Assembly: GCA_003056085.1 (NCBI GenBank)
Contig: LSNK01000002.1
Span: forward strand, 1-40,484
Direction of reading: 5' to 3'
From: Parcubacteria group bacterium M6-OD1-1
GTDB taxonomy: Bacteria; Patescibacteriota; Minisyncoccia; GWC2-36-17; M10-OD1-4
Length of the DNA: 40,484 bases
Made by a program: the position numbers and the translations under genes
Shown here: piece by piece, positions 3,465-17,205 of the stretch
Layout of the letters: every line of letters begins with the position of its first letter
Numbering within the stretch: the stretch's first letter is position 1
Notes under the pieces: model-generated
What the model saw: only the letters and a program-made list of their open reading frames with translations
Databases searched by the model: none
Told to the model about the DNA's origin: nothing

Positions 3465-4262
3465 TTATTTTTTTGTCGGGAAAATTCCGTTTATGGCATT
3501 GTTTACTATTTCTTTCACCTCAATGCCAAAATCAGCCTGAAGCATCCAATTTAAAAAACCGGGATTTGACATAAAAACACTTTTTAAACTCTCTCCTCTA
3601 TGCTTTCCAAAATTAAAATAAGCTTCACCATCTCTCCAATAAAATCTTCTGTCAGCATCAACATATCTTTCGTCTTTTTGAGAATGCAATGAACTTAAAA
3701 ATTCTTTGTCTTTTATTTCCGGATATTTTTCAAGTTGCGATTCCAAAATCTCATAAGTCGCCAAAACATCCCCTTCTGCGCTATGAGCGTCTATATGATC
3801 CTTCCCACAGTAAAATTTATATGCTGATGTTAAGTCTCTTTTTTCCATACTGTGAAAAATCGTTTTTGAGTCTATTATATCTTCCATTTTATACTCAAAA
3901 TTAATTCCCGCCTCTTTAAATTCTTTTTGAAGCATCGGCAGGTCAAAGCCGATAACATTAAAGCCTCCAAAGTAACAGTTGGAAAAAACCTCTAAAAATT
4001 CTTGAGCATACTCTTTAAAATACGGATGCTTTTTTGCTTCTTCGTCGGTTATTCCATGAACATCTATCGATTCCTGGGGGATTTTAATCCCGGGATTTAT
4101 TTTATAAGTCTTGACCTCTTTTTCTCCACTTGGAGATATTTTCATATAGGAGAGTTCAACAACTTTATCCAAGTTAATCATAACCCCTGTTGTTTCAAGG
4201 TCAAAAACCACCAATGGTTTTTCTAATTTTAATTTTTCCATTATTTGATTTTTTTCCGGCAT
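3465..4262 (-). CDS. DnaQ/epsilon-like DEDDh 3'-5' exonuclease with an ExoX-like C-terminal domain
   Basis: Motifs VVFDLETTG (Exo I), GFNVIGFDLPML (Exo II) and HSAEGDVLAT (Exo III, DEDDh). The start is set at the internal ATG (MPEKNQIMEKLKLEK...). The ORF-track start at 4409 is a TTG that would read through a GC-rich structured intergenic element. An alternative ATG lies at 4241. Confidence 0.8.
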   Translation of the reverse strand: MPEKNQIMEKLKLEKPLVVFDLETTGVMINLDKVVELSYMKISPSGEKEVKTYKINPGIKIPQESIDVHGITDEEAKKHPYFKEYAQEFLEVFSNCYFGGFNVIGFDLPMLQKEFKEAGINFEYKMEDIIDSKTIFHSMEKRDLTSAYKFYCGKDHIDAHSAEGDVLATYEILESQLEKYPEIKDKEFLSSLHSQKDERYVDADRRFYWRDGEAYFNFGKHRGESLKSVFMSNPGFLNWMLQADFGIEVKEIVNNAINGIFPTKK

Positions 4263-4371
4263 ATCTTTAAAACTTTCTTCCCCGTAAAATATTTCTGCTT
4301 TTGACAAAATTTCTGCAAAACAGAATCCCACTGGGGTTGACAAATTAATTAATATATGATAGTTTGTTGTT

Positions 4372-4493
4372 AAGGATGAAGGCGCAATTTTATGTCGCCC
4401 CACGCCCAACCGGAAGGCTTAAAGTTCCTTCTTCGGCTCAAAAAAGAGCGGGTGTCATCCTACCCCCCGAGACAAGTTCCCGGGGGTTTTTTT
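4372..4493 (+). ncRNA. Candidate structured small RNA of unknown class (GC-rich island with its own promoter-like element and intrinsic terminator)
   Basis: TTGACA at 4337-4342, then a TGn-extended weak -10 (tgaTAGTTT) 17 nt downstream. GGATGA (4374-4379) pairs with TCATCC (4455-4460). Internal hairpins are ggcg..cgcc and ccggaagg..ccttcttcgg. The terminator stem is CCCCCG/CGGGGG (4464-4486) followed by T7. No plus-strand gene lies downstream. Confidence 0.4.
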
Positions 4494-7400
4494 ATTTATA
4501 GTCCTTGCATCCGTCGCAAAACCCCTGCTTACTGCTGCACTCAAACTCCAAGTTCATTATCTTTTCGTAAACTTCTTTTATTGTTTCTTTCAGCTCCGAT
4601 ACATCTTTTTCTGTAAATTCAACTGCTTCTTTTTTGTATTTTTCGTCTTTCCCCTGCACAAAATCCAACTCTCCAACAGTCATATTATATTTAAATCTAC
4701 TGTCCAAATCGCATAAAATTTTATAAAAAACTATCTGTCTTTTTAGATTTCCTTTGGAATCTTTCGTTTTCCCCTCTATTTGGTTTTTTGTTTTTGCGCT
4801 TCCGGTTTTATAATCTATAACTTTAACATCTGTTGTATTTACTTTTTCTATTTTATCAATTTTTCCGGTTAAATGCACGTCATCCAAATACACTTCATGT
4901 TTTGAAAAGTTATATTCAACGGCTTCAGGGACAATCATGCTGTCTTTATACAAATTGTAATATCCCAAAATACCTTCTGCGCCTATTTTTATTAACTCTT
5001 CTTTCTCTTTGTATGTTAAAATTTCTCTTTCGATCGCATTTTTGTATGCCGACACAAGAAACTCAGAAGACGGCAGCTTGTCTGTATTTTTAAACTCCAA
5101 AAAAAACTTTTCTAAGGCTTTATGATACGCCGTTCCAAGCACCATATGCTTGTTTTTTGCTTCAGGTATTCTTATTAAGTTTCTAAACTTAAATTTTCTC
5201 GGACACTCAAGATAGTTGTCTAAGTGAGTAACGCTCAGCTTGTAGTCTGCAAGCAGTGACTTTAAATATTCATCTTCTTTTTCCTTTTGAATTTTGCCTC
5301 CTCTTAATTTTTTATCCAAAAATTCTTCTGCGTCATCTATCTCTTTATCACCTAAAATATTATTTATATATTTTTTGTCTATTTCCTCAACAAATTGAGA
5401 AATTGATTTTTCTTGGACATTGCCGTTTGAAACATACTCTTCAGCATAAGTAATATATGCTTTTTTCTTTGCTCTTGTTAAAGCTACAAAAAAAAGTCTT
5501 CTTTCATCCTCATTTTTTTCAAATTCAATTTTGGAAGACTTGGTTAAAAGATTTTCAGGAAGCTTTATCTTATCCATACTTCTTTTATTTCCCCATGTTT
5601 TATCCACCGCTTTTGTTATAAATACATATTCAAATTCAAGCCCCTTTGCCTTATGAGCTGTCATAATTCTTACTCCTTTTTTTTGAAGCAAAAACGACTC
5701 TTCTTTTATTTCAATATTATATTCATTGTATAAATTAATTTTTTCTAAAAACTTTTTTGTATCAAGCTCTCTGTCTTGTAAATTTAACTCTTTTATTTCA
5801 GAAAACAAACTGGAAATATGCCTTAAATATTCCATTTTCTCGTCTTTATTAAATATCCAATCCAAAAATCCGCTATCTGAAAGAACCTTCCCGCAAAATG
5901 CAGTAAAAGTTGTTTCCGCGCTTATCTTTTTAAATTTAAGAAACTTATCTATAAAATCGGCTATATTTTGCTTGCTTATGAGATCCAAATTTTCTAAATT
6001 TTCAGCTTTTGAAATAATATCAAAAATATTCACCTTATCCTTCTTGGAATAATTAATTTCATAAAGATATTTATACAATTTATACACATCAAGCGCATCT
6101 ATGTTTAAAAATCCAAGAGACATTATATCTAAAAGTTTTTTGTCGTCGTAAGGATTCTCAATAATAGAAAGATAATCCAAAAACGCTCTTACAGAAACCC
6201 CCTGCAAAACATTATTTGATGCTTCAAACACCACAGGAATATCTCTTTTTATTAAAAATTCCGCCATTTCATGACTTTCTCTGTTTGTCCTTGAAAATAT
6301 CGCTATTTCATCAGAGTTTTCTCCTTCTTCTATTAATTTTTCTATCTTTTTTGTAATATAAAACTTCTCTGCGTCGCCAACGGAAAATTTTACAACATCA
6401 ATTTTTTCCCCTTCGCCTTTTTGAGAATTTAACTTTTTATCTACGCCGTCTAAAAAATTACCAACTCTATTTTTGTTCTTATCAATCATAGAGAAAGAAG
6501 AATCTAAAATATTTTGAGTAGATCTGTAATTTTGTTTTAAAACTATAGGACTTTTTACGCCATATTTATCACTAAAAAATAAAATATTTTCCAAAGACGC
6601 TCCTTGAAATCTGTAAATTGACTGATCGTCATCTCCCACTACAAAAATATTGGGTTTTTCATCTGAAAGAAAGCTTGTAAGCAACGAAATTATTTCGTTT
6701 TGAGCCTCGTTTGTGTCTTGATATTCGTCTACCATTATATAAAGATACTGCTCCTGATAACTTGCTAAAAGTTCATCGTCTTCCTTAAACTTATTAACAA
6801 CAAACAATATCATATCCTCGTAGTCATAAAGCCCTTTTTCTTTTATTTTTTTTTGGTATTCTTTGTAAATTAAAGAAAGCTCCTTGTTTTTTAAAACTTG
6901 TTTTTCTTTTTTCTGCCACTCGCCCGTTGGTTTTCCGGTTCTTGGATTTATCTTATGCTCGCTTTTTAACTCTTTTTCTAAAATTTTTAAATTTTCGTCT
7001 AATTTTTCAGGCGTAATATCTTCGCGTTTCAGCTTTTGAATACTTTTTAATATATCAGACAGATAAAAATATCTATCTCCAAATGTAACTAAATTTTTCA
7101 GATCTAAAGAGTTTATAATATTTCTTAAAATCTCAATTCTTTCTATATCGGATATTTGTTTAATCCCTTTTGCAAATATAAATTTTTCCGGAAATTCATT
7201 TATCACTTGAGAACAAAAACCATGTAAAGTAGTGATGTTCACCTTATAAGCATCAGTCCCCATTATCTCAAGAAGTCTTTTTTTAATAGCCGTAACACCA
7301 CTTTCGGTAAAAGTTGTTATCAATACGTTCTCTGCGGGCGACAACCCCTCTTTGCATATATAAGCCGCCCTCATGCCTATTATCTCAGTTTTTCCGGTAC

Positions 7401-7497
7401 CGGGCCCCGCAATAACCATAACAGGCCCCTCGGTATTTGTTACCGCTTTTTGCTGTTCTTTATTTAATTTTGCAAATCTTTGTTTGAAATCTTCCAT
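4492..7497 (-). CDS. UvrD/PcrA-type superfamily-1 helicase fused to a C-terminal PD-(D/E)XK nuclease with a Cas4/AddB-type Cys cluster
   Basis: Helicase motifs AGPGTGKT (I), VDEYQDT (II), VGDDDQSIYRFQGA (III), QNYRS (IV), TAHKAKGLEFEYVF (V) and VALTRAKK (VI). The C-terminal nuclease has LECPRKF, GKIDKIE, VIDYKTG, QIVFYKIL and a terminal CSSKQGFCDGC. Confidence 0.85.
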   Translation of the reverse strand: MEDFKQRFAKLNKEQQKAVTNTEGPVMVIAGPGTGKTEIIGMRAAYICKEGLSPAENVLITTFTESGVTAIKKRLLEIMGTDAYKVNITTLHGFCSQVINEFPEKFIFAKGIKQISDIERIEILRNIINSLDLKNLVTFGDRYFYLSDILKSIQKLKREDITPEKLDENLKILEKELKSEHKINPRTGKPTGEWQKKEKQVLKNKELSLIYKEYQKKIKEKGLYDYEDMILFVVNKFKEDDELLASYQEQYLYIMVDEYQDTNEAQNEIISLLTSFLSDEKPNIFVVGDDDQSIYRFQGASLENILFFSDKYGVKSPIVLKQNYRSTQNILDSSFSMIDKNKNRVGNFLDGVDKKLNSQKGEGEKIDVVKFSVGDAEKFYITKKIEKLIEEGENSDEIAIFSRTNRESHEMAEFLIKRDIPVVFEASNNVLQGVSVRAFLDYLSIIENPYDDKKLLDIMSLGFLNIDALDVYKLYKYLYEINYSKKDKVNIFDIISKAENLENLDLISKQNIADFIDKFLKFKKISAETTFTAFCGKVLSDSGFLDWIFNKDEKMEYLRHISSLFSEIKELNLQDRELDTKKFLEKINLYNEYNIEIKEESFLLQKKGVRIMTAHKAKGLEFEYVFITKAVDKTWGNKRSMDKIKLPENLLTKSSKIEFEKNEDERRLFFVALTRAKKKAYITYAEEYVSNGNVQEKSISQFVEEIDKKYINNILGDKEIDDAEEFLDKKLRGGKIQKEKEDEYLKSLLADYKLSVTHLDNYLECPRKFKFRNLIRIPEAKNKHMVLGTAYHKALEKFFLEFKNTDKLPSSEFLVSAYKNAIEREILTYKEKEELIKIGAEGILGYYNLYKDSMIVPEAVEYNFSKHEVYLDDVHLTGKIDKIEKVNTTDVKVIDYKTGSAKTKNQIEGKTKDSKGNLKRQIVFYKILCDLDSRFKYNMTVGELDFVQGKDEKYKKEAVEFTEKDVSELKETIKEVYEKIMNLEFECSSKQGFCDGCKDYK

Positions 7498-7622
7498 TTA
7501 AGTGTTTTATACTTTAAAATAACAACGAAAAATATCTAATCTTAAGATTATTATACACCAGACAAAAAATAAAAGCCAAAATTACACATTTATTCATTTT
7601 TAAGCTCCTCATCGCACAACTA

Positions 7623-7651
7623 TTGACACTTGGGTTATATTCTGTTAATAT
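7623..7651 (+). promoter_or_regulatory. Near-consensus sigma70 promoter for the GC-rich cassette gene
   Basis: TTGACA (7623-7628), a 17-nt spacer, then TAATAT (7646-7651). A strong SD, TAGGAGGT (7688-7695), lies 5 nt before the ATG at 7701. Confidence 0.55.
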
Positions 7652-7700
7652 CAATCTGATTCAATCTCGGATCAATAAATAACAACGTAGGAGGTTCTAT

Positions 7701-8408
7701 ATGAAGAACTCGATGTTCTTTCTTATTTTTGCAATTATCGGACTGGTTACCGCTCCCATCGCTCAGGCCGAAACAGCCTATACTGGTGATGTCAGCGTCA
7801 AATCAAAAGATGTCTTTGATAACGGCCGAGTAATCTGGGACAATGCCGTACTTCAAGCAACAGGTTTTGCCGATTTTGGCAATGGCTGGCGCACTGAAGC
7901 AATGGCATCCCTGGGTAATGGTGCAAGTATGTATTCTGACAGCAATGGATCCCGGGTAAGTTTTGCCGGATACCGGGATATGAAAATGGGCAAGTTCGCC
8001 ATCACGGCGGGTCTTGCGTATCACGATCTCAGAAACATACGCAACACCAACCAGGATGTCCTCATCCCGTCCATTTATGTCAGCATGCCGACGGGCAGCA
8101 ATACGTCTCTCTTTACAGAGGCGAAAGGCTACATCGTCAAAAACGGCAAGGACGGCACATCGCTTGAATTTGGCGGCTCGCTCAATCATAAAATTATGGG
8201 CATTGGCGCAAATCACAGTCTGAGCGTACTTCGCGACAACACGTCGCTGTACAATTTCAGGAAAGGAACCCTGGCTGTTTACAGCGGTGAGCTGACGTGG
8301 AAAAAAAGCAAAAATATGACCATCCATCCGCTGAACTTGCGGATAATTGGCGAGAAAAATCAATCGGCAATTACCGTAGTCGGCGCCGGGTTAACCTATA
8401 AATTCTAG
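7701..8408 (+). CDS. Secreted protein with beta-barrel outer-membrane-protein hallmarks (family not identified)
   Basis: Sec signal peptide MKNSMFFLIFAIIGLVTAPIAQA/ET. Alternating hydrophobic beta-strand patterns occur throughout (FAITAGLAYHDL, LAVYSGELTWK, AITVVGAGLTYKF), ending in a C-terminal aromatic ...TYKF. GC is far above the surrounding sequence (about 45-50% by eye). Confidence 0.6.
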   Translation: MKNSMFFLIFAIIGLVTAPIAQAETAYTGDVSVKSKDVFDNGRVIWDNAVLQATGFADFGNGWRTEAMASLGNGASMYSDSNGSRVSFAGYRDMKMGKFAITAGLAYHDLRNIRNTNQDVLIPSIYVSMPTGSNTSLFTEAKGYIVKNGKDGTSLEFGGSLNHKIMGIGANHSLSVLRDNTSLYNFRKGTLAVYSGELTWKKSKNMTIHPLNLRIIGEKNQSAITVVGAGLTYKF

Positions 8409-8426
8409 TCAAATAACCCTGCTCTG

Positions 8427-8457
8427 GGGCGACATCGCAATGATGTCGCCCTTTTTT
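8427..8457 (+). terminator. Intrinsic terminator of the GC-rich cassette gene
   Basis: 10-bp stem gggcgacatc/gatgtcgccc with a 5-nt loop and a T6 run. Confidence 0.75.
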
Positions 8458-8480
8458 ATTCCAAAAATTCCCCACAAACT

Positions 8481-8499
8481 ACATAGGTGTCACCTATGT
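8481..8499. repeat. Short copy of the CATAGGTGTCACCTATG palindrome family
   Basis: ACATAGGTGTCACCTATGT is a perfect palindrome around a central T. Its core is identical to the 27-nt palindromes at 28487, 28955 and 29514. Confidence 0.8.
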
Positions 8500-8527
8500 A
8501 AACTCACTTATATAAACTTAAAATACT

Positions 8528-8571
8528 AAAATGACAACTTTGGGGACGGTCGTCCCCAAAGTTGTCATTTT
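8528..8571. repeat. Long perfect hairpin (about 21 bp stem) with GACGGTCGTC centre and A/T-tract flanks
   Basis: aaaatgacaactttggggacg gt cgtccccaaagttgtcatttt. The central 10-mer is the reverse complement of the centre of the hairpin at 23107-23150. Confidence 0.8.
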
Positions 8572-8719
8572 TATTGATACTTAAATATTTTTTTAAAAGA
8601 CTTTTTGAGGTATGTTAATTCTAAATAAAAACGTCATACTTGATTAATTTTAATCGCTTTGGCTTTTTCTTTGTTTTACTAATTTCTTTCTCTTTGAGTT
8701 AGAATTTAAAATAAACCCA

Positions 8720-8747
8720 TTGACAAAAGCATATAAAATGCTAAAAT
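8720..8747 (+). promoter_or_regulatory. Near-consensus sigma70 promoter driving the rpmE leader
   Basis: TTGACA (8720-8725), a 16-nt spacer, then TAAAAT (8742-8747). Confidence 0.55.
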
Positions 8748-8754
8748 ACCCAAT

Positions 8755-8880
8755 GTGTATTGTCTTTTTCATCGCTCGCAACCCATACACCCCTCCCTTC
8801 TGCGAGTTCAAACGGCAGCAATACACTTTAATCTTTGGGGGAGTCGGCTAAATAAAAAAAAGCCGACCCCCTCTTTTTTT
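8755..8880 (+). promoter_or_regulatory. Structured 5' leader with an intrinsic terminator upstream of rpmE (candidate attenuator or ribosomal-protein leader)
   Basis: P1 is GTGTATTG (8755-8762) paired with CAATACAC (8819-8826). An inner hairpin CTCGCA/TGCGAG (8775-8806) has a C-rich loop containing CCCCTCCC (8790-8797). The terminator is GGGGGAGTCGGCT/AGCCGACCCCCTC (8837-8873) plus T7, ending 32 nt before the rpmE ATG. Confidence 0.5.
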
Positions 8881-8911
8881 CTAATTTAAATCATATATAA
8901 AACTTAAAAAT

Positions 8912-9257: not shown

Positions 9258-10304
9258 ATGTTTGAAAAGGAATTTAAAAAATTAAAAGAAGAATACCAGG
9301 AGTTAGAAAAAGAGTTTGCCTCAGGGAAGCTTTTTTCTGATACGCAAAAATACAAAGAGTTATCACAAAGATATGCGGAATTAAAAGAAATTATTCCTAA
9401 ATATGACAAACTGAAGGAAATTGAAAAAAATATAGAAGAAAATATAAAAATATTAAAAGAAGAAACTGAAGAAGAATTACTTAAGTTAGTGGAAGAAGAG
9501 CTGACTGAACTAAACTCTCAAAAGAAAGAATCAGAAAAAGAAATAAAAAATATACTTTTCCCTGATAAAAAAGCAAAATATAAAAATATAATTATGGAGA
9601 TACGAGCGGGCGCAGGTGGAGATGAAGCCGCTTTGTTTGCCTCAGACCTGCTTAAAATGTATTCAAGATATGCTCAAAAAAAAGGCTGGGATGTTTCCGT
9701 AATAAACTCTCACAACAACCCACTGGGAGGCTTTAAAGAAGTCACATTTGAAATCTCCGGTCGCGGCTCATACTCAGATATGTTTTATGAAAGCGGCGTC
9801 CATAGAGTGCAAAGAATACCTGAAACGGAAAAACAAGGAAGAATTCACACATCAACAGTGTCTGTTGCCGTATTACCGGAAGTCCCCGCATCTGAGGTCA
9901 CTATAAATCCAAGCGATTTAAGATTTGAAACTTTCAGATCCGGAGGACCCGGAGGACAAAATGTAAACAAAGTGGAAACGGCTGTAAGAGTTATTCATAT
10001 TCCGACAGGTGTTGTTGTTGCATCTCAAGTGGAAAGATCCCAGGCAAGAAACAAAGAAAAAGCTCTTCAAATTCTTCAATCAAAAATAACACAGGAACAA
10101 GAAGAAAAACAAGCAAGAGAGCTTAGTCAAGCAAGAAAAGAACAAGTTGGAACAGCAGACAGATCAGAAAAAATAAGAACTTACAACTTCCCTCAAGACA
10201 GAATAACTGATCATAGAATAAAAAAAAGCTGGCACAATATGGAGCTTATTTTAGACGGAGAAATAGATGATATTGTAGAGGAACTTAAAAAAGAACTTAA
10301 ATAA
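9258..10304 (+). CDS. prfA: Peptide chain release factor 1
   Basis: GGQ motif (RSGGPGGQNVNKVETAVR) and an RF1-type PxT tripeptide context (RIPETEKQGRIHTS). 348 aa. Confidence 0.92.
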   Translation: MFEKEFKKLKEEYQELEKEFASGKLFSDTQKYKELSQRYAELKEIIPKYDKLKEIEKNIEENIKILKEETEEELLKLVEEELTELNSQKKESEKEIKNILFPDKKAKYKNIIMEIRAGAGGDEAALFASDLLKMYSRYAQKKGWDVSVINSHNNPLGGFKEVTFEISGRGSYSDMFYESGVHRVQRIPETEKQGRIHTSTVSVAVLPEVPASEVTINPSDLRFETFRSGGPGGQNVNKVETAVRVIHIPTGVVVASQVERSQARNKEKALQILQSKITQEQEEKQARELSQARKEQVGTADRSEKIRTYNFPQDRITDHRIKKSWHNMELILDGEIDDIVEELKKELK

Positions 10305-13947: not shown

Positions 13948-14820
13948 TTATATTTTATTTTCTCCTTCATTAGAATTTTGTTCTAAATTAATCCCATCAG
14001 GCAAGACCTCATTCTCTAAAATTTCCGGCTCCTGTTTTTCTTCTTGCTCCAACTCTTCAATGCTTTCCTCCATTTCCTGTTTTTCTTCTTTTAATTTTTG
14101 CTCTACACGCTCTGTCGCTTCATTTGTTAAATCTTCATCAAATCTTTTTTGAAGTTCCGGTAAAATTTCAAGAATTTTAGGCAACAACTTTATTCCTTCT
14201 TTAAAAGCTCTCGCTAAAGACTGCGCGATCTCCGGATCAAGAGAACCCATGGCTCTGCTTTCAATAACTCTTCCTCCGGAAGTCTTCCCACTTCTAAAAA
14301 GACTCTCAAAATCAACGGAACTTAACTGACTGAATTCTTCAAATAATTCATCAATCTTTTCTTGCAGAATTTTTTCTTTTTCTTCTGCGATAAGCTGTTC
14401 TTTTTCTTTTTGACTTATAAAATCTTCCTTCTGTCCCCCTAAAGCCTCTTGCTCAGACTGAAGTTTTGTCAGTTTTTCCTTATCCAACAACACACTCGGC
14501 GGCTCTTCTTCGGTCGGTGGAAGTCTAAGTTTTTCTCGCGCCTCATTTAATTTTGCTTTTGTTTCTTGAATTGATTCTGTTAATTTTGCAATCTCTTGCT
14601 GCGGAGAATCAATTTCATTTTCTAAATCTTCAAACTGTTCCTCCGGCATCAGTTTCAACTCTTCCGCCTCTTGCTCTTCTTTTATTTCTAATTTTGACTT
14701 GGCTAATTCTTCTTGTTCGGACTCACTTTCTATATTTTCCACAACATTAATCCCCTCTCCTGCTTCTTTGGAGTTTGATTCTGGATTATTCAAATCTGGG
14801 GCACTTTCCGGATTAAACAT
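13948..14820 (-). CDS. Hypothetical highly acidic coiled-coil protein
   Basis: 290 aa and very Glu-rich. It lies 2 nt from the downstream gene. No recognisable enzymatic motif. Confidence 0.55.
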   Translation of the reverse strand: MFNPESAPDLNNPESNSKEAGEGINVVENIESESEQEELAKSKLEIKEEQEAEELKLMPEEQFEDLENEIDSPQQEIAKLTESIQETKAKLNEAREKLRLPPTEEEPPSVLLDKEKLTKLQSEQEALGGQKEDFISQKEKEQLIAEEKEKILQEKIDELFEEFSQLSSVDFESLFRSGKTSGGRVIESRAMGSLDPEIAQSLARAFKEGIKLLPKILEILPELQKRFDEDLTNEATERVEQKLKEEKQEMEESIEELEQEEKQEPEILENEVLPDGINLEQNSNEGENKI

Positions 14821-14825
14821 AATTT

Positions 14826-14990
14826 TTATTTTTGTTTATCTTTTAAATAATAATAACCCGCCAAAATAACAACCGAAAGTGTAATGATGGAATTTGTCCA
14901 ATGAATACCGTGTTTTGCAACAAATACTGTAAATAAAAAATATAAAACTGCAAAAACTGCAAAATATATACTCTTTGCTTTGTCGCTCAT
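14826..14990 (-). CDS. Hypothetical 54-aa two-TM membrane protein
   Basis: Manual translation gives MSDKAKSIYFAVFAVLYFLFTVFVAKHGIHWTNSIITLSVVILAGYYYLKDKQK*. Its stop is 5 nt upstream of the next gene's start. It is below the ORF-track size cutoff. Confidence 0.4.
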   Translation of the reverse strand: MSDKAKSIYFAVFAVLYFLFTVFVAKHGIHWTNSIITLSVVILAGYYYLKDKQK

Positions 14991-15037
14991 ATTTTTCTTA
15001 ATAAATTTTGGATATTTTTCATTGCGGTTATCTATTT

Positions 15038-15265
15038 TTATTGAATATTATACATATTAGCTATACTATTCATCAACGAAGGCAAAATAACCATAATAGC
15101 TATGAGTGGCAAAATAAAGAAAATAAGCGTCAGATAAAACGTCCATTTTAAATATTTTCTTGTTTTTTCAACCGATTTATAAATAGCATCAATTTTTTTA
15201 TCTTGCTCTTGTATTTTCTCTAAAATTTCATTTTCCATATTTTTATATAAATTACTATATTTCAC
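15038..15265 (-). CDS. Hypothetical 75-aa single-TM protein
   Basis: N-terminal charged helix and one C-terminal TM (WTFYLTLIFFILPLIAIMVILP). Confidence 0.45.
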   Translation of the reverse strand: MKYSNLYKNMENEILEKIQEQDKKIDAIYKSVEKTRKYLKWTFYLTLIFFILPLIAIMVILPSLMNSIANMYNIQ

Positions 15266-15382
15266 CTAAATATATAATAACACAAAAAAACACCATATAA
15301 AATAAAACGTCTTAATGCTTTATATAAATTGGTGTTTTTTTAATTATAAAAATTTCTATTTTTATAATCCATTATTAAACCC

Positions 15383-15470
15383 TATTTTTACTTCCGCAAA
15401 TTTCTATTTTCTCTTGCGTTGTTTTTTGAGTGGCATCTTGCGCAGGAGCTATAAATTTATAAGGAATGGT
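15383..15470. repeat. Direct repeat copy A: a displaced fragment of the fba 3' end
   Basis: 88 nt match 17214-17301 with 2 mismatches (15390 a/g, 15466 a/g) at an offset of 1831 bp. On the minus strand it still reads ...IPYKFIAPAQDATQKTTQEKIEICGSKN followed by a different tail. Confidence 0.9.
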
Positions 15471-15628
15471 TTTTTTATTTACGAAAATCTTCCTCTCTTA
15501 ATTTTGAATGAAATAGAATTGACTGAAAAGTTCCGTGAGGAATATCCTTTTTACTCATCTTAATAATTACAATACGAGTTGGGTTACTATCTTTTTTAAA
15601 TTTAGCATATAAATTTTTTTAAGAAAAA

Positions 15629-16199
15629 TTAATCTATCACATCAACTAACTGAAAATCATTTTTATCAATAAGAAATTTATAAATAAAATCTGACGAGGT
15701 GTCACACACAGAATCAGTAAAGTTGCAATTATAAACTTGTGATAATAGTGCTCTTATGCAACCTTCGTGAGCAACGAAAAGAATTGTATCATCCTTATTA
15801 TTTTCATATTCTTTTATATATGAAAATAATCTGTGCTTCATTACATTAAAACTTTCCCCCCCCCCCCTGGCGCAATTAAATCTGGATCATTTAAATTAAG
15901 CTGTTTTTTACATATTGATCTTGCCTCCCATTTAATTGACCGGAGTTTCTTTCTCTTAATTCGGGCGTATATTCAATTGACGTTTTAATGATATCCATAA
16001 TTATTTTTGCAGTCTGAGAACATCTTCATAGGTCACTCGAGATTATTTTTGTAATATTTTTATTTTTAAGAGATTTCCCTAATTTTATAGCTGCACTTTT
16101 TCCAAGCTTAGTTAATCGAGAATCTTTGTGTCCTTGTAATCTTTTTTGAATATGCCATTCGGCTTGAGGGTGTCTAATTATAAAAAGAATTATGATTAT
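15629..16199 (-). pseudogene. Histidine phosphatase (phosphoglycerate-mutase-like) family gene, disrupted
   Basis: Manual translation gives IILFIIRHPQAEWH...RLTKLGKSAAIKLGKSL...KIISSDL[TGA]RCSQTAKII...PELRERNSGQLNG. This is followed by a frame change at a T6/A6 run (15904-15909), then ...LNLNDPDLIAPGGG, then a frame change at the C12/G12 run, then ESFNVMKHRLFSYI...ILFVAHEGCIRALL. There is no ATG at the family-typical start (ATA ATC ATA ATT). Confidence 0.75.
15856..15867. repeat. C12 homopolymer (G12 on the coding strand) inside the phosphatase pseudogene
   Basis: Read directly as actttCCCCCCCCCCCCtgg. Lengths of 7, 10 or 13 would restore the ...APGG(G)ESF... frame. 12 does not. Confidence 0.9.
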
Positions 16200-16246
16200 A
16201 AATTAATATAAATAATTTATTTAACTGTATAATACAGATAGTCTAA

Positions 16247-16630
16247 CTATATTTTTAAAATTAAATTATCTTTAATTTTATCAGTTAAAGAGAAATCCGT
16301 TAACTCATCTGGTTTGTGCCGAAAAACATCAAATCCTTTTTCATTATATCTTGGAACCAAATGCCAATGAACCTGACTTACTTCGTCCATATAAATTAAA
16401 TAAATTTTTGTTACTTTCAAAGATTTAAGTAATGCATTTCTAACCTCATCAACTTTGTCCATTAAATATTCATAATCTTTTTTTGGAAGCAAATGTAAAT
16501 CAGAAACAGATTTTTTCCATACAACAACAGTATGACCTTTAATAATCGGATAATTAGCTAAACAGGCATATAATTTTGCATCTTCATAAATCATTGCTTG
16601 ATTAAACGGTTTTGGTAACTTAGTTTTCAT
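16247..16630 (-). CDS. HIT (histidine triad) family nucleotide hydrolase/transferase
   Basis: Histidine-triad-like motif QVHWHLVPRY near the C-terminus and GHTVVVWK upstream. The start is set at the internal ATG (MKTKLPKPF...) rather than the ORF-track start. Confidence 0.65.
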   Translation of the reverse strand: MKTKLPKPFNQAMIYEDAKLYACLANYPIIKGHTVVVWKKSVSDLHLLPKKDYEYLMDKVDEVRNALLKSLKVTKIYLIYMDEVSQVHWHLVPRYNEKGFDVFRHKPDELTDFSLTDKIKDNLILKI

Positions 16631-16712
16631 AATAATTAGATAATTATAAATCCATATAAATAGCATGCTCTAAACCTACGCATGACATGATTATCACTTT
16701 AACTATTATAGT

Positions 16713-17159
16713 TTATATTTTTATTTCTGTTAAATTTTGATTTATAACTATTGGTTTCATTCCTAAAATTTCTTCCTTACAACCAATTTCCGGAACATTA
16801 TTTAATAAAAATAGTTTCTTATTAAGATGAAACGCAAGACCCATTTCCAATAGTGTATTTGCTCCTACATAATTTAACACATCATTTTTATCATAATTTA
16901 AAATCAAAACAGCATCACTCCATTCAACCTTTTGAAAATGCGCTCTCATGGCCTCCTCTTTTCTGTCCCAAATCCAACTTGTATCATTAGTTTCGGCTTT
17001 TCTTTTAGCATAATATTCTTTTACAGGAATCATATTACCATCTTCGTTTTTGACTTCAAAAGGAGGCAATTTAACTCGGTGTTTGAGCTGTTCTAATTTT
17101 TTCCTTACATCAAGCATTTCATCATAAAATGCTATGCTCCCACAGATTGTGATTTTCAT
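16713..17159 (-). CDS. Nucleoside 2-deoxyribosyltransferase / DNPH1(Rcl)-like protein (putative)
   Basis: The N-terminal MKITICGSIAF resembles the (Y)FCGSIRGG motif. A later ...NTLLEMGLAF... provides the conserved Glu-x-Gly. About 150 aa. Confidence 0.45.
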   Translation of the reverse strand: MKITICGSIAFYDEMLDVRKKLEQLKHRVKLPPFEVKNEDGNMIPVKEYYAKRKAETNDTSWIWDRKEEAMRAHFQKVEWSDAVLILNYDKNDVLNYVGANTLLEMGLAFHLNKKLFLLNNVPEIGCKEEILGMKPIVINQNLTEIKI

Positions 17160-17205
17160 AATTTATTTTTAGAATAAATTTTAACTCCTTTTTTAAAAAT
17201 CCATC

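Follow-up and report, generated by a model that had tools for sequence, protein, structure and literature searches.

In contig LSNK01000002.1 of Parcubacteria group bacterium M6-OD1-1 (assembly GCA_003056085.1), a short GC-rich cassette encodes a protein resembling the beta-barrels of bacterial outer membranes. We analysed the contig over 40,484 nucleotides, a stretch referred to below as the window. The cassette stands between a UvrD/PD-(D/E)XK helicase-nuclease gene on one side and rpmE on the other, with prfA nearby, and it comprises the following features:

7623-8458, + strand: conserved cassette proper, about 836 bp, from promoter to terminator
7623-7651, + strand: predicted sigma-70-type promoter TTGACA-17-TAATAT with an extended -10 element (TG), from a consensus scan (10 of 12 matches)
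7658-7673, + strand: leader hairpin GAUUC-AAUCUC-GGAUC at the presumed 5′ end of the transcript, present in the minimum-free-energy fold
7687-7694, + strand: Shine-Dalgarno sequence GTAGGAGG with a spacing of 6 nt to the ATG, by inspection of the sequence
7701-8408, + strand: coding sequence, ATG start and stop codon included, for a predicted porin-like 12-stranded beta-barrel protein of 235 residues, from the listing of open reading frames (ORFs)
7701-7769, + strand: predicted Sec signal peptide spanning residues 1-23, cleavage by signal peptidase I being predicted at AQA/ET, from sequence inspection
7803-8363, - strand: antisense ORF of 186 residues, from the ORF listing
8426-8458, + strand: predicted intrinsic terminator, with a GC-rich stem of 12 bp (8426-8452) and a T-run after it, from a scan and fold

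The original prediction held that this segment is a complete expression unit, and its proposed parts proved to be in place. The promoter, given as TTGACA-N17-TAATAT, was recovered at 7623-7651 by the consensus scan, with a TG before the -10 element, and the 235-residue coding sequence corresponds to the ORF at 7701-8408 on the forward strand. The tight GC-rich terminator folded at -20.5 kcal/mol (z = -5.2), and 0 of 200 shuffled sequences folded as well. The strong Shine-Dalgarno sequence is likewise present, although the leader, at about 43 nt for a transcription start near 7658, is slightly shorter than the 49 nt first proposed. Stem-loops at the 5′ terminus are classical stabilisers of mRNA, as in the 5′ untranslated region of ompA, and the hairpin of the cassette leader is a putative stabiliser of this kind. 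The leader as a whole was no more stable than its shuffles (z = -0.76), and an Rfam search with it gave no credible match.

The composition of the cassette departs sharply from its surroundings. In 300-bp windows, GC content reached 0.47-0.51 over positions 7700-8449, compared with 0.25-0.38 in the flanks, where it fell to 0.27 downstream; at the kilobase scale, values across the whole window ranged from 0.26 to 0.40. The jump reported earlier is therefore borne out as an island of about 48% GC inside a genome of about 33% GC. The excess lies mainly in the third codon position: GC at this position (GC3) was 0.555 in the barrel ORF against 0.273 ± 0.043 in the 39 other ORFs of the window (z = 6.6), and relative to the same ORFs the first position (GC1) was unremarkable (z = 0.6) and the second (GC2) mildly raised (z = 2.3). 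Recoding the barrel protein with host codon usage gave an expected GC content of 0.376, compared with 0.482 observed. Since the excess is concentrated in GC3, it represents an anomaly of codon usage beyond the mere effect of a protein rich in Gly, Ala, Ser and Thr, and we rejected amino-acid composition alone as the source of the jump. The antisense frame of 186 codons to which the original prediction drew attention does exist; however, 13.7% of synonymous-codon shuffles yielded an equal or longer one, so it is no longer than composition predicts. We did not retain it as a gene, given this expectation and given that the single-nucleotide differences between strains are synonymous only in the sense frame.

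The encoded protein has the N- and C-terminal hallmarks that had been claimed for it. Its signal peptide reads MKNSMFFLIFAIIGLVTAPIAQA/ET and divides into n-, h- and c-regions MKNS, MFFLIFAIIGLVTAPI and AQA/ET. Kyte-Doolittle hydropathy exceeded 1.6 in 19-residue windows at residues 2-26 only, and this exclusively N-terminal hydrophobic window together with the AQA/ET site supports a predicted cleavable Sec signal; the same region forms a low-confidence helix in the AlphaFold2 model. The protein contains no Cys, hence no lipobox, and so it is not a lipoprotein. At the other end, the sequence closes with GAGLTYKF, in which G-L-T-Y-K-F fits the beta-signal G-x-x-aromatic-x-aromatic, and the terminal Phe (F235) is nearly invariant, being conserved in 11 of the 12 family members. 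Such C-terminal beta-signals are recognised by the beta-barrel assembly machinery (BAM) of diderm bacteria.

Structure prediction was in line with an outer-membrane protein (OMP)-like barrel, as first proposed. From the single sequence, AlphaFold2 gave no usable model (predicted local distance difference test, pLDDT, 32). From an alignment of 12 sequences, it predicted 12 long antiparallel strands of 10-14 residues each after the signal helix, with a pLDDT of 82.3 and a predicted template-modelling score (pTM) of 0.77. A Foldseek search of the PDB with this model returned 157 matches at E ≤ 1e-3; the 50 matches listed are all integral outer-membrane barrels, including OmpG, FapF, KdgM, NanC, autotransporter domains and porins, with no soluble fold among them. 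The best geometric fit was KdgM (4fqe), with template-modelling (TM) scores of 0.82 when normalised to KdgM (the target) and 0.61 when normalised to the query, and a root-mean-square deviation of 3.0 Å, and NanC came second with TM scores of 0.60 and 0.67-0.68, the latter normalised to the target. Against a viral library, Foldseek found phage-encoded OMP-like barrels only, at lower TM scores. On the strength of the predicted fold, the protein fits best as a divergent representative of the outer-membrane beta-barrel superfamily, in the class of small monomeric 12-stranded porins.

Sequence searches placed the protein outside the described families. Neither Pfam, including its KdgM model, nor NCBIfam gave a match to the window protein at E ≤ 10, and PHROGs gave none. 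PDB sequences, searched with the protein alone and with a profile of its family, returned nothing meaningful (for the profile, none at E ≤ 10); weak sortase matches in the PDB sequence search (E = 0.08-0.5) were dismissed as chance. The suggestion that the protein might belong to KdgM or another family of small barrels thus found no match by sequence, and KdgM and NanC are its nearest neighbours by predicted structure. A search of 5.8 billion clusters recovered only its own three-member cluster, word-indexed homology searches yielded almost nothing past the query clusters, GTDB species representatives contained no close relative of the barrel protein, and a metagenome scan for it returned the same contig only.

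The nearest relatives are P0004 (34% identity, E = 9e-18) and P0005 (30%, E = 4e-8). Weaker matches, P0007-P0013, form a group of comparable length whose members have a signal peptide and end in Phe, and through this group the family touches curated models: P0007 and P0010 barely pass PF09694 (Gcw_chp), at 24.9 and 25.5 bits against a cut-off of 24, and P0008, P0010 and P0013 weakly match TIGR02001 ("TorF family putative porin"), none reaching the cut-off of 47.15 bits. Alignment of the close subfamily with the Gcw_chp-like group by hhalign covered the full length with a probability of 99.3% (E = 1e-20). Alignment A1 was too divergent for pattern scans. The genes found beside the relatives encode unannotated small proteins, DUF378, PaaX_M and Zn-ribbon proteins and a lone FtsW, together with an unlinked 23S-5S pair. 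P0010, at locus L023, is a native-looking copy on a 531-kb contig. At 3697-7227 of the same locus, a 23S rRNA gene of about 3.3 kb extends some 390 nt beyond the model and is directly followed by the 5S rRNA gene; protein-coding genes and no 16S rRNA gene lie upstream of it, consistent with an unlinked rRNA operon.

Similarity among the closest relatives extends beyond the coding sequence. We compared the three closest cassettes, namely that of the window (7606-7700), L020 (178-350, carrying P0005) and L018 (1310-1482, carrying P0004). The -35 element (TTGAC), the -10 element (TAnTAT), a 5-bp 5′ hairpin and the Shine-Dalgarno sequence are colinear in all three; GTAGGAG is invariant, and the shared hairpin stem contains one compensatory change from A-U to G-C. 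Over the 95 nt upstream of the gene, mean pairwise identity was 0.48 against 0.30 ± 0.05 for shuffled sequences (maximum 0.42; z = 3.7), compared with a nucleotide identity of 0.43-0.46 over the coding sequences, 0.34-0.37 at third codon positions and 26-31% between the proteins. The window and L020 also have related terminator stems (GCGACATC...GATGTCGC), and the similarity between cassettes ends at the -35 element upstream and at the terminator downstream. All other family members are monocistronic, with a strong Shine-Dalgarno sequence and a hairpin-T terminator. Because the upstream region is as well conserved as the coding region and its signals are colinear, the inherited unit is the entire module from promoter to terminator.

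The relatives differ in how well they blend into their genomes. The copies in L022, L031 and L032, and roughly that in L023, have GC3 values like those of their neighbours, whereas the copies in L027 (1600-2394) and L033 (998-1792), carrying P0009 and P0011, have a GC3 of 0.90 against 0.49-0.63 in neighbouring genes. Genes for tRNA-Arg(TCT) and tRNA-Pro stand about 120 bp upstream of the latter copies, which look like a second, independent occurrence of the family as a foreign island. The L020 gene, with a GC content of 0.49 against 0.34-0.36 in its flanks, is probably foreign too. This mixture of native-looking and foreign-GC copies points to repeated lateral transfer of the module and argues against a GC3 bias intrinsic to the family, whether from expression level or from biased gene conversion; the low GC3 of the host's ribosomal-protein genes also counts against such a bias, and we rejected this explanation.

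The host had been taken for a member of the Candidate Phyla Radiation (CPR), and comparison of its genes agrees. The best matches of RF1 (9258-10304) are metagenome-assembled genomes (MAGs) of Candidatus Azambacteria and other Patescibacteria, at 82%, 76% and 73% identity, the first of these being a Candidatus Azambacteria MAG. The gene order CorA-rhodanese-RNase T-helicase, continued beyond the cassette site by rpmE-prfA-SLT-L25, is common to the window and these MAGs. The housekeeping set of the window includes enzymes of glycolysis and the pentose-phosphate pathway, MreB, MreC and PBP2, RRF and aminoacyl-tRNA synthetases, and no outer-membrane biogenesis gene was present among the genes of the 40-kb window. 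Identity and synteny support assignment of the host to a species-level lineage of Patescibacteria near Candidatus Azambacteria. In Patescibacteria the outer membrane is "proposed absent" (PMC12102498), their envelopes are still poorly described according to reviews (PMC8871954), and gene transfers into them from diderm phyla are documented, if rare (PMC12455944).

The original prediction called for a check of the cassette in sister genomes, and two sister species lack it at the syntenic site. In L009, the starts of the helicase gene and rpmE are only about 218 bp apart, with no cassette between them; in L008, a native AT-rich gene for an M3 peptidase occupies the gap in its place. The cassette is thus a lineage-specific insertion with approximate boundaries, and the features that delimit the site are as follows:

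7600-8700, no strand: DNA missing from the empty sister site, approximate extent (about 1.1 kb), from comparison with L009
7579-7550, - strand: helicase promoter-like site, from a scan, bracketing the insert together with the rpmE promoter at 8720-8747 (+)
8528-8571, no strand: perfect palindrome of 21 + 21 nt, resembling a bidirectional terminator, downstream of the cassette, from a repeat scan and fold

No tRNA gene was found in the window and no integrase with the cassette, and neither the window nor about 170 kb of sister CPR (Azambacteria-like) loci contained a paralogue of the barrel gene. A mobile-element signature or target-site duplication was considered and rejected: the repeats are short and at chance level, and the pair of AAATAACAACG does not flank the unit. 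This exact 11-nt direct repeat occurs at 7517-7527, in the upstream region of the helicase gene, and at 7677-7687, in the cassette leader before the Shine-Dalgarno sequence, with a third copy of 91% identity at 8623-8633. It may have arisen by chance or be a trace of recombination from insertion of the cassette.

The cassette is not confined to a single assembly. The protein or one-residue variants of it (P0001-P0003) are encoded in six independent assemblies: Logan SRR14803397 and SRR6439370, NCBI GCA_006243085, GCA_006243105 and GCA_006243245, and MAG GCA_003056185. Identity between these contigs and the window was 98.7-100%, and at least four of the contigs run across each junction. Two Logan contigs terminate at 8556 and 8564; both positions fall within the palindrome at 8528-8571, which accounts for these ends without invoking a chimeric join. 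With six independent assemblies spanning both junctions, the cassette is real, and the chimeric assembly listed as an option in the original prediction is excluded. The palindrome itself folds at -32.2 kcal/mol (z = -9.4), occurs once in the window and gave only spurious miRNA-like matches in Rfam. At its centre, the window and L005 have the dinucleotide GT, whereas strains L004 and L006 have the reverse complement AC, as though the element had been flipped.

Three haplotypes carry the intact barrel ORF. The strain represented by GCA_003056185 is about 1.3% divergent from the window overall and has three substitutions in the cassette, two of them synonymous and common to the third haplotype and one non-synonymous (G228S); the third haplotype carries E140M. 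Divergence in the cassette is 0.4%, which lies within the 0-4% observed for the flanking genes and indicates that the gene was already present before the strains diverged.

Several further observations concern the neighbourhood rather than the cassette. The rpmE gene is preceded by a promoter of its own, TTGACA-16-TAAAAT (8720-8747, +); the leader, about 160 nt long (region 8720-8911), ends in a terminator-like hairpin (about 8837-8871) and a U-run directly before the rpmE Shine-Dalgarno sequence. This arrangement suggests an attenuator or a ribosomal-protein leader; the sister genomes L009 and L008 have hairpins at the same position, and the leader had no match in Rfam. The fusion of UvrD helicase and PD-(D/E)XK nuclease, 1001 residues long in the window (4492-7497), is interrupted in L008 (4470-7492), where a 708-residue ORF and a remainder are found. 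An RNase T/ExoX-like gene, intact in the window (314 residues; 3465-4409), is split into ORFs of 140 and 169 residues in L004 (3855-4793). Strain-variable slots were apparent at 13957-14814 and about 15470-17188 of the window in comparison with L004 (14437-15714). In the first, the window has an unannotated 290-residue ORF (13948-14820), and L004 instead has a 409-residue gene with an NmeDI_C domain (restriction-endonuclease-like) and two small ORFs. About 1.7 kb of the window, with a HIT-family gene (16247-16666) and a 148-residue ORF, is missing from L004. Finally, an AT-rich stretch of about 1.4 kb (14820-16247, GC about 0.26) contains no ORF of at least 80 residues other than one of 82 (15315-15563), and no tRNA gene or Rfam match was found in it.

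Among known systems, the KdgM/NanC porins (PDB 4fqe, 2wjq, 2wjr and 8xua) come closest in form. As predicted for the window protein, they have 12 antiparallel strands, a mature chain of about 210 residues, a Sec signal peptide and a terminal Phe; however, sequence identity is only 10-12%, and the known porins of this family are proteobacterial outer-membrane proteins that take up acidic oligosaccharides, whereas the window protein belongs to a presumed monoderm. The protein accordingly falls outside KdgM/NanC by sequence model and resembles it in its predicted 12-stranded barrel of about 210 residues. The TorF/Gcw_chp group (TIGR02001, PF09694), a curated family without a known function, is the only one reached by sequence, via the remote relatives, and it is similar in length (about 240 residues), signal peptide and terminal Phe. 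Since the window protein itself matches neither model and misses both cut-offs, its relation to TorF/Gcw_chp lies at the level of the superfamily rather than of membership.

In its organisation, the cassette recalls the morons of phages, which are autonomous units of promoter, gene and terminator with atypical composition and often encode OMPs (Lom, Bor). The likeness includes one gene flanked by a promoter and a terminator of its own, foreign composition and a position between unrelated genes, and conservation of the whole module beyond the gene among the cassette relatives. Unlike a moron, the cassette lies amid housekeeping genes and not in a prophage, with no integrase or flanking duplication found, and since PHROGs, phage records and IMG/VR contain no relatives, the resemblance is architectural only. 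PopA of Bdellovibrio, a predator barrel that acts on prey membranes, offers a loose precedent of another kind (PMC12228718). PopA, however, is a pentameric lipid-trapping assembly from a diderm with BAM, and the analogy to the window protein is functional and speculative, with no homology shown. The cassette protein is a new, highly divergent porin barrel of the OMP type, found in an unusual host as an autonomous module.

Collectively, our findings indicate that the cassette is probably a genuine, laterally acquired module, extending from promoter to terminator and encoding a 12-stranded porin-type barrel of the OMP superfamily, in Patescibacteria near Candidatus Azambacteria. Its identity as an acquired cassette for an OMP-type barrel is well supported. 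The original prediction had listed a recent transfer from a diderm among its options. Recent lateral acquisition is supported, given the foreign codon usage and a site that is empty or differently occupied in sisters; no donor-like sequence was recovered, and a diderm donor is what we infer. In the mechanism we propose, the cassette would be transcribed from its own sigma-70 promoter, the conserved hairpin at the 5′ end of the mRNA may stabilise the transcript, and translation would start at the strong Shine-Dalgarno sequence. The precursor would be exported via Sec and cleaved after Ala23, and the mature chain of 212 residues would fold into a monomeric 12-stranded barrel; with one hydrophobic face and many charged residues on the other in most strands, it would suit a water-filled diffusion channel in the size class of KdgM and NanC. 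Because the host lineage is regarded as having neither an outer membrane nor BAM, the barrel cannot take the ordinary route of insertion in its own cell. Use of the barrel outside the cell's own membrane, for example in contact with a diderm partner, and persistence as a still-intact passenger are about equally likely.

Several results weigh against this interpretation. On the side of the fold, amphipathic periodicity had been claimed throughout the protein, and it held only in part. A beta-moment test over the whole protein was not above shuffles (z = 0.4), whereas a per-strand dyad test on the AlphaFold strands gave a difference between faces of 2.05 against 1.36 ± 0.30 in shuffled sequences (z = 2.3, p = 0.017); most of the predicted strands have one hydrophobic face and many charged residues on the opposite one, at a significance that is modest only. 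The fold comes from a prediction on the 12-sequence alignment, and closure of the barrel was not inspected in the coordinates. With only four substitutions, selection on the barrel protein cannot be shown. On the side of origin, HMMER recovered 8 proteins at E ≤ 1e-3 from 1.84 billion representatives (one of them, P0006, a spurious match to a repeat protein), so that remote relatives are few, about 10 overall. No donor-like sequence occurred among some 15 billion proteins, and tblastn of phage and plasmid records and a search of viral contigs (IMG/VR) gave no relative. A recent transfer from a sampled diderm lineage would be expected to leave a near-identical relative; as none was found, the donor is either unsampled or other than assumed. 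Moreover, the genes neighbouring the relatives include neither diderm nor monoderm markers and have the look of small "dark-matter" genomes, and the lack of diderm markers means that the family could reside in CPR-like organisms instead of having been imported from diderms.

The alternative that survives best, which we consider possible but clearly the less probable account, is a neutral passenger: a recent acquisition without function, perhaps expressed, whose barrel misfolds or is degraded for want of BAM and an outer membrane and whose gene will decay. The host lineage is regarded as monoderm (PMC12102498), the gene is limited to one species-level lineage whose sister species lack it, its codon usage still shows no drift toward the host pattern, and the substitutions (two synonymous and one non-synonymous per strain pair) are too few to reveal purifying selection. 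However, the ORF and its expression signals are intact in three haplotypes with synonymous divergence like that of the flanks, so the cassette has persisted since the strains split. Conservation of the regulatory region across cassettes whose proteins are about 30% identical further implies long-term function of the module elsewhere. Streamlined CPR genomes, moreover, are expected to lose useless DNA quickly.

A more radical alternative, which we regard as unlikely, is that the family is resident in CPR-like ultra-small bacteria and moves among them. In that case, a sparse, undescribed family of 12-stranded barrels would circulate as complete modules among CPR-like genomes, and an epibiont would export the barrel either to the outer membrane of its diderm host, where insertion via the host's BAM would provide a nutrient channel at the contact site, or to an unrecognised outer layer of its own. 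All of the relatives are on metagenome contigs whose neighbouring genes lack diderm markers, one copy looks native on its 531-kb contig, the beta-signal is conserved to its nearly invariant F235, and other copies (L027, L033 and L020) are likewise foreign-GC islands in genomes of lower GC. Against this stand the absence of a paralogue from the 170 kb of sister Azambacteria-like loci and of any delivery system linked to the cassette, and the extreme sparseness of the family; the idea is speculative.

Less probable again is a soluble secreted beta-barrel or beta-sandwich, such as a binding protein, with a superficial resemblance to OMPs. Such a protein would fit the whole-protein amphipathicity at shuffle level, the modest per-strand value and the lack of a sequence-level match to any solved barrel. 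Twelve strands of 10-14 residues, however, are of membrane-spanning length; in addition, the Foldseek matches listed are integral outer-membrane barrels without exception, the C-terminal G-x-x-Y-x-F with its terminal Phe is conserved, and remote homology leads to the TorF/Gcw_chp putative porins. An assembly chimera or contamination of the bin by a GC-rich segment from another organism, which would fit the sharp shifts in composition at both cassette ends and the stop of two short-read contigs about 100 bp past it, is exceedingly improbable, given that the same junctions recur in six assemblies from different samples and assemblers, including a strain 1.3% divergent in flanks and cassette alike, and that those contigs end inside a perfect 44-bp palindrome, a known cause of breaks, rather than at the composition boundary.

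Much of bacterial diversity belongs to the Patescibacteria (CPR), which are regarded as monoderm and as living in attachment to other cells; next to nothing is known of the molecules at that interface. Read as an acquired module for a porin-type barrel, the cassette bears on this biology in either of its possible roles. If the barrel is functional, it would have direct relevance for the way CPR bacteria draw on their hosts, or for the question whether an unrecognised outer layer exists in some of these organisms. If it is inert, the locus would be a clean, assembly-verified case of an envelope gene transferred to a CPR genome and, given a matching sequence, could point to the donor or host lineage. 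The module itself, complete from promoter to terminator, merits interest as a unit of gene mobility that is not tied to phages.

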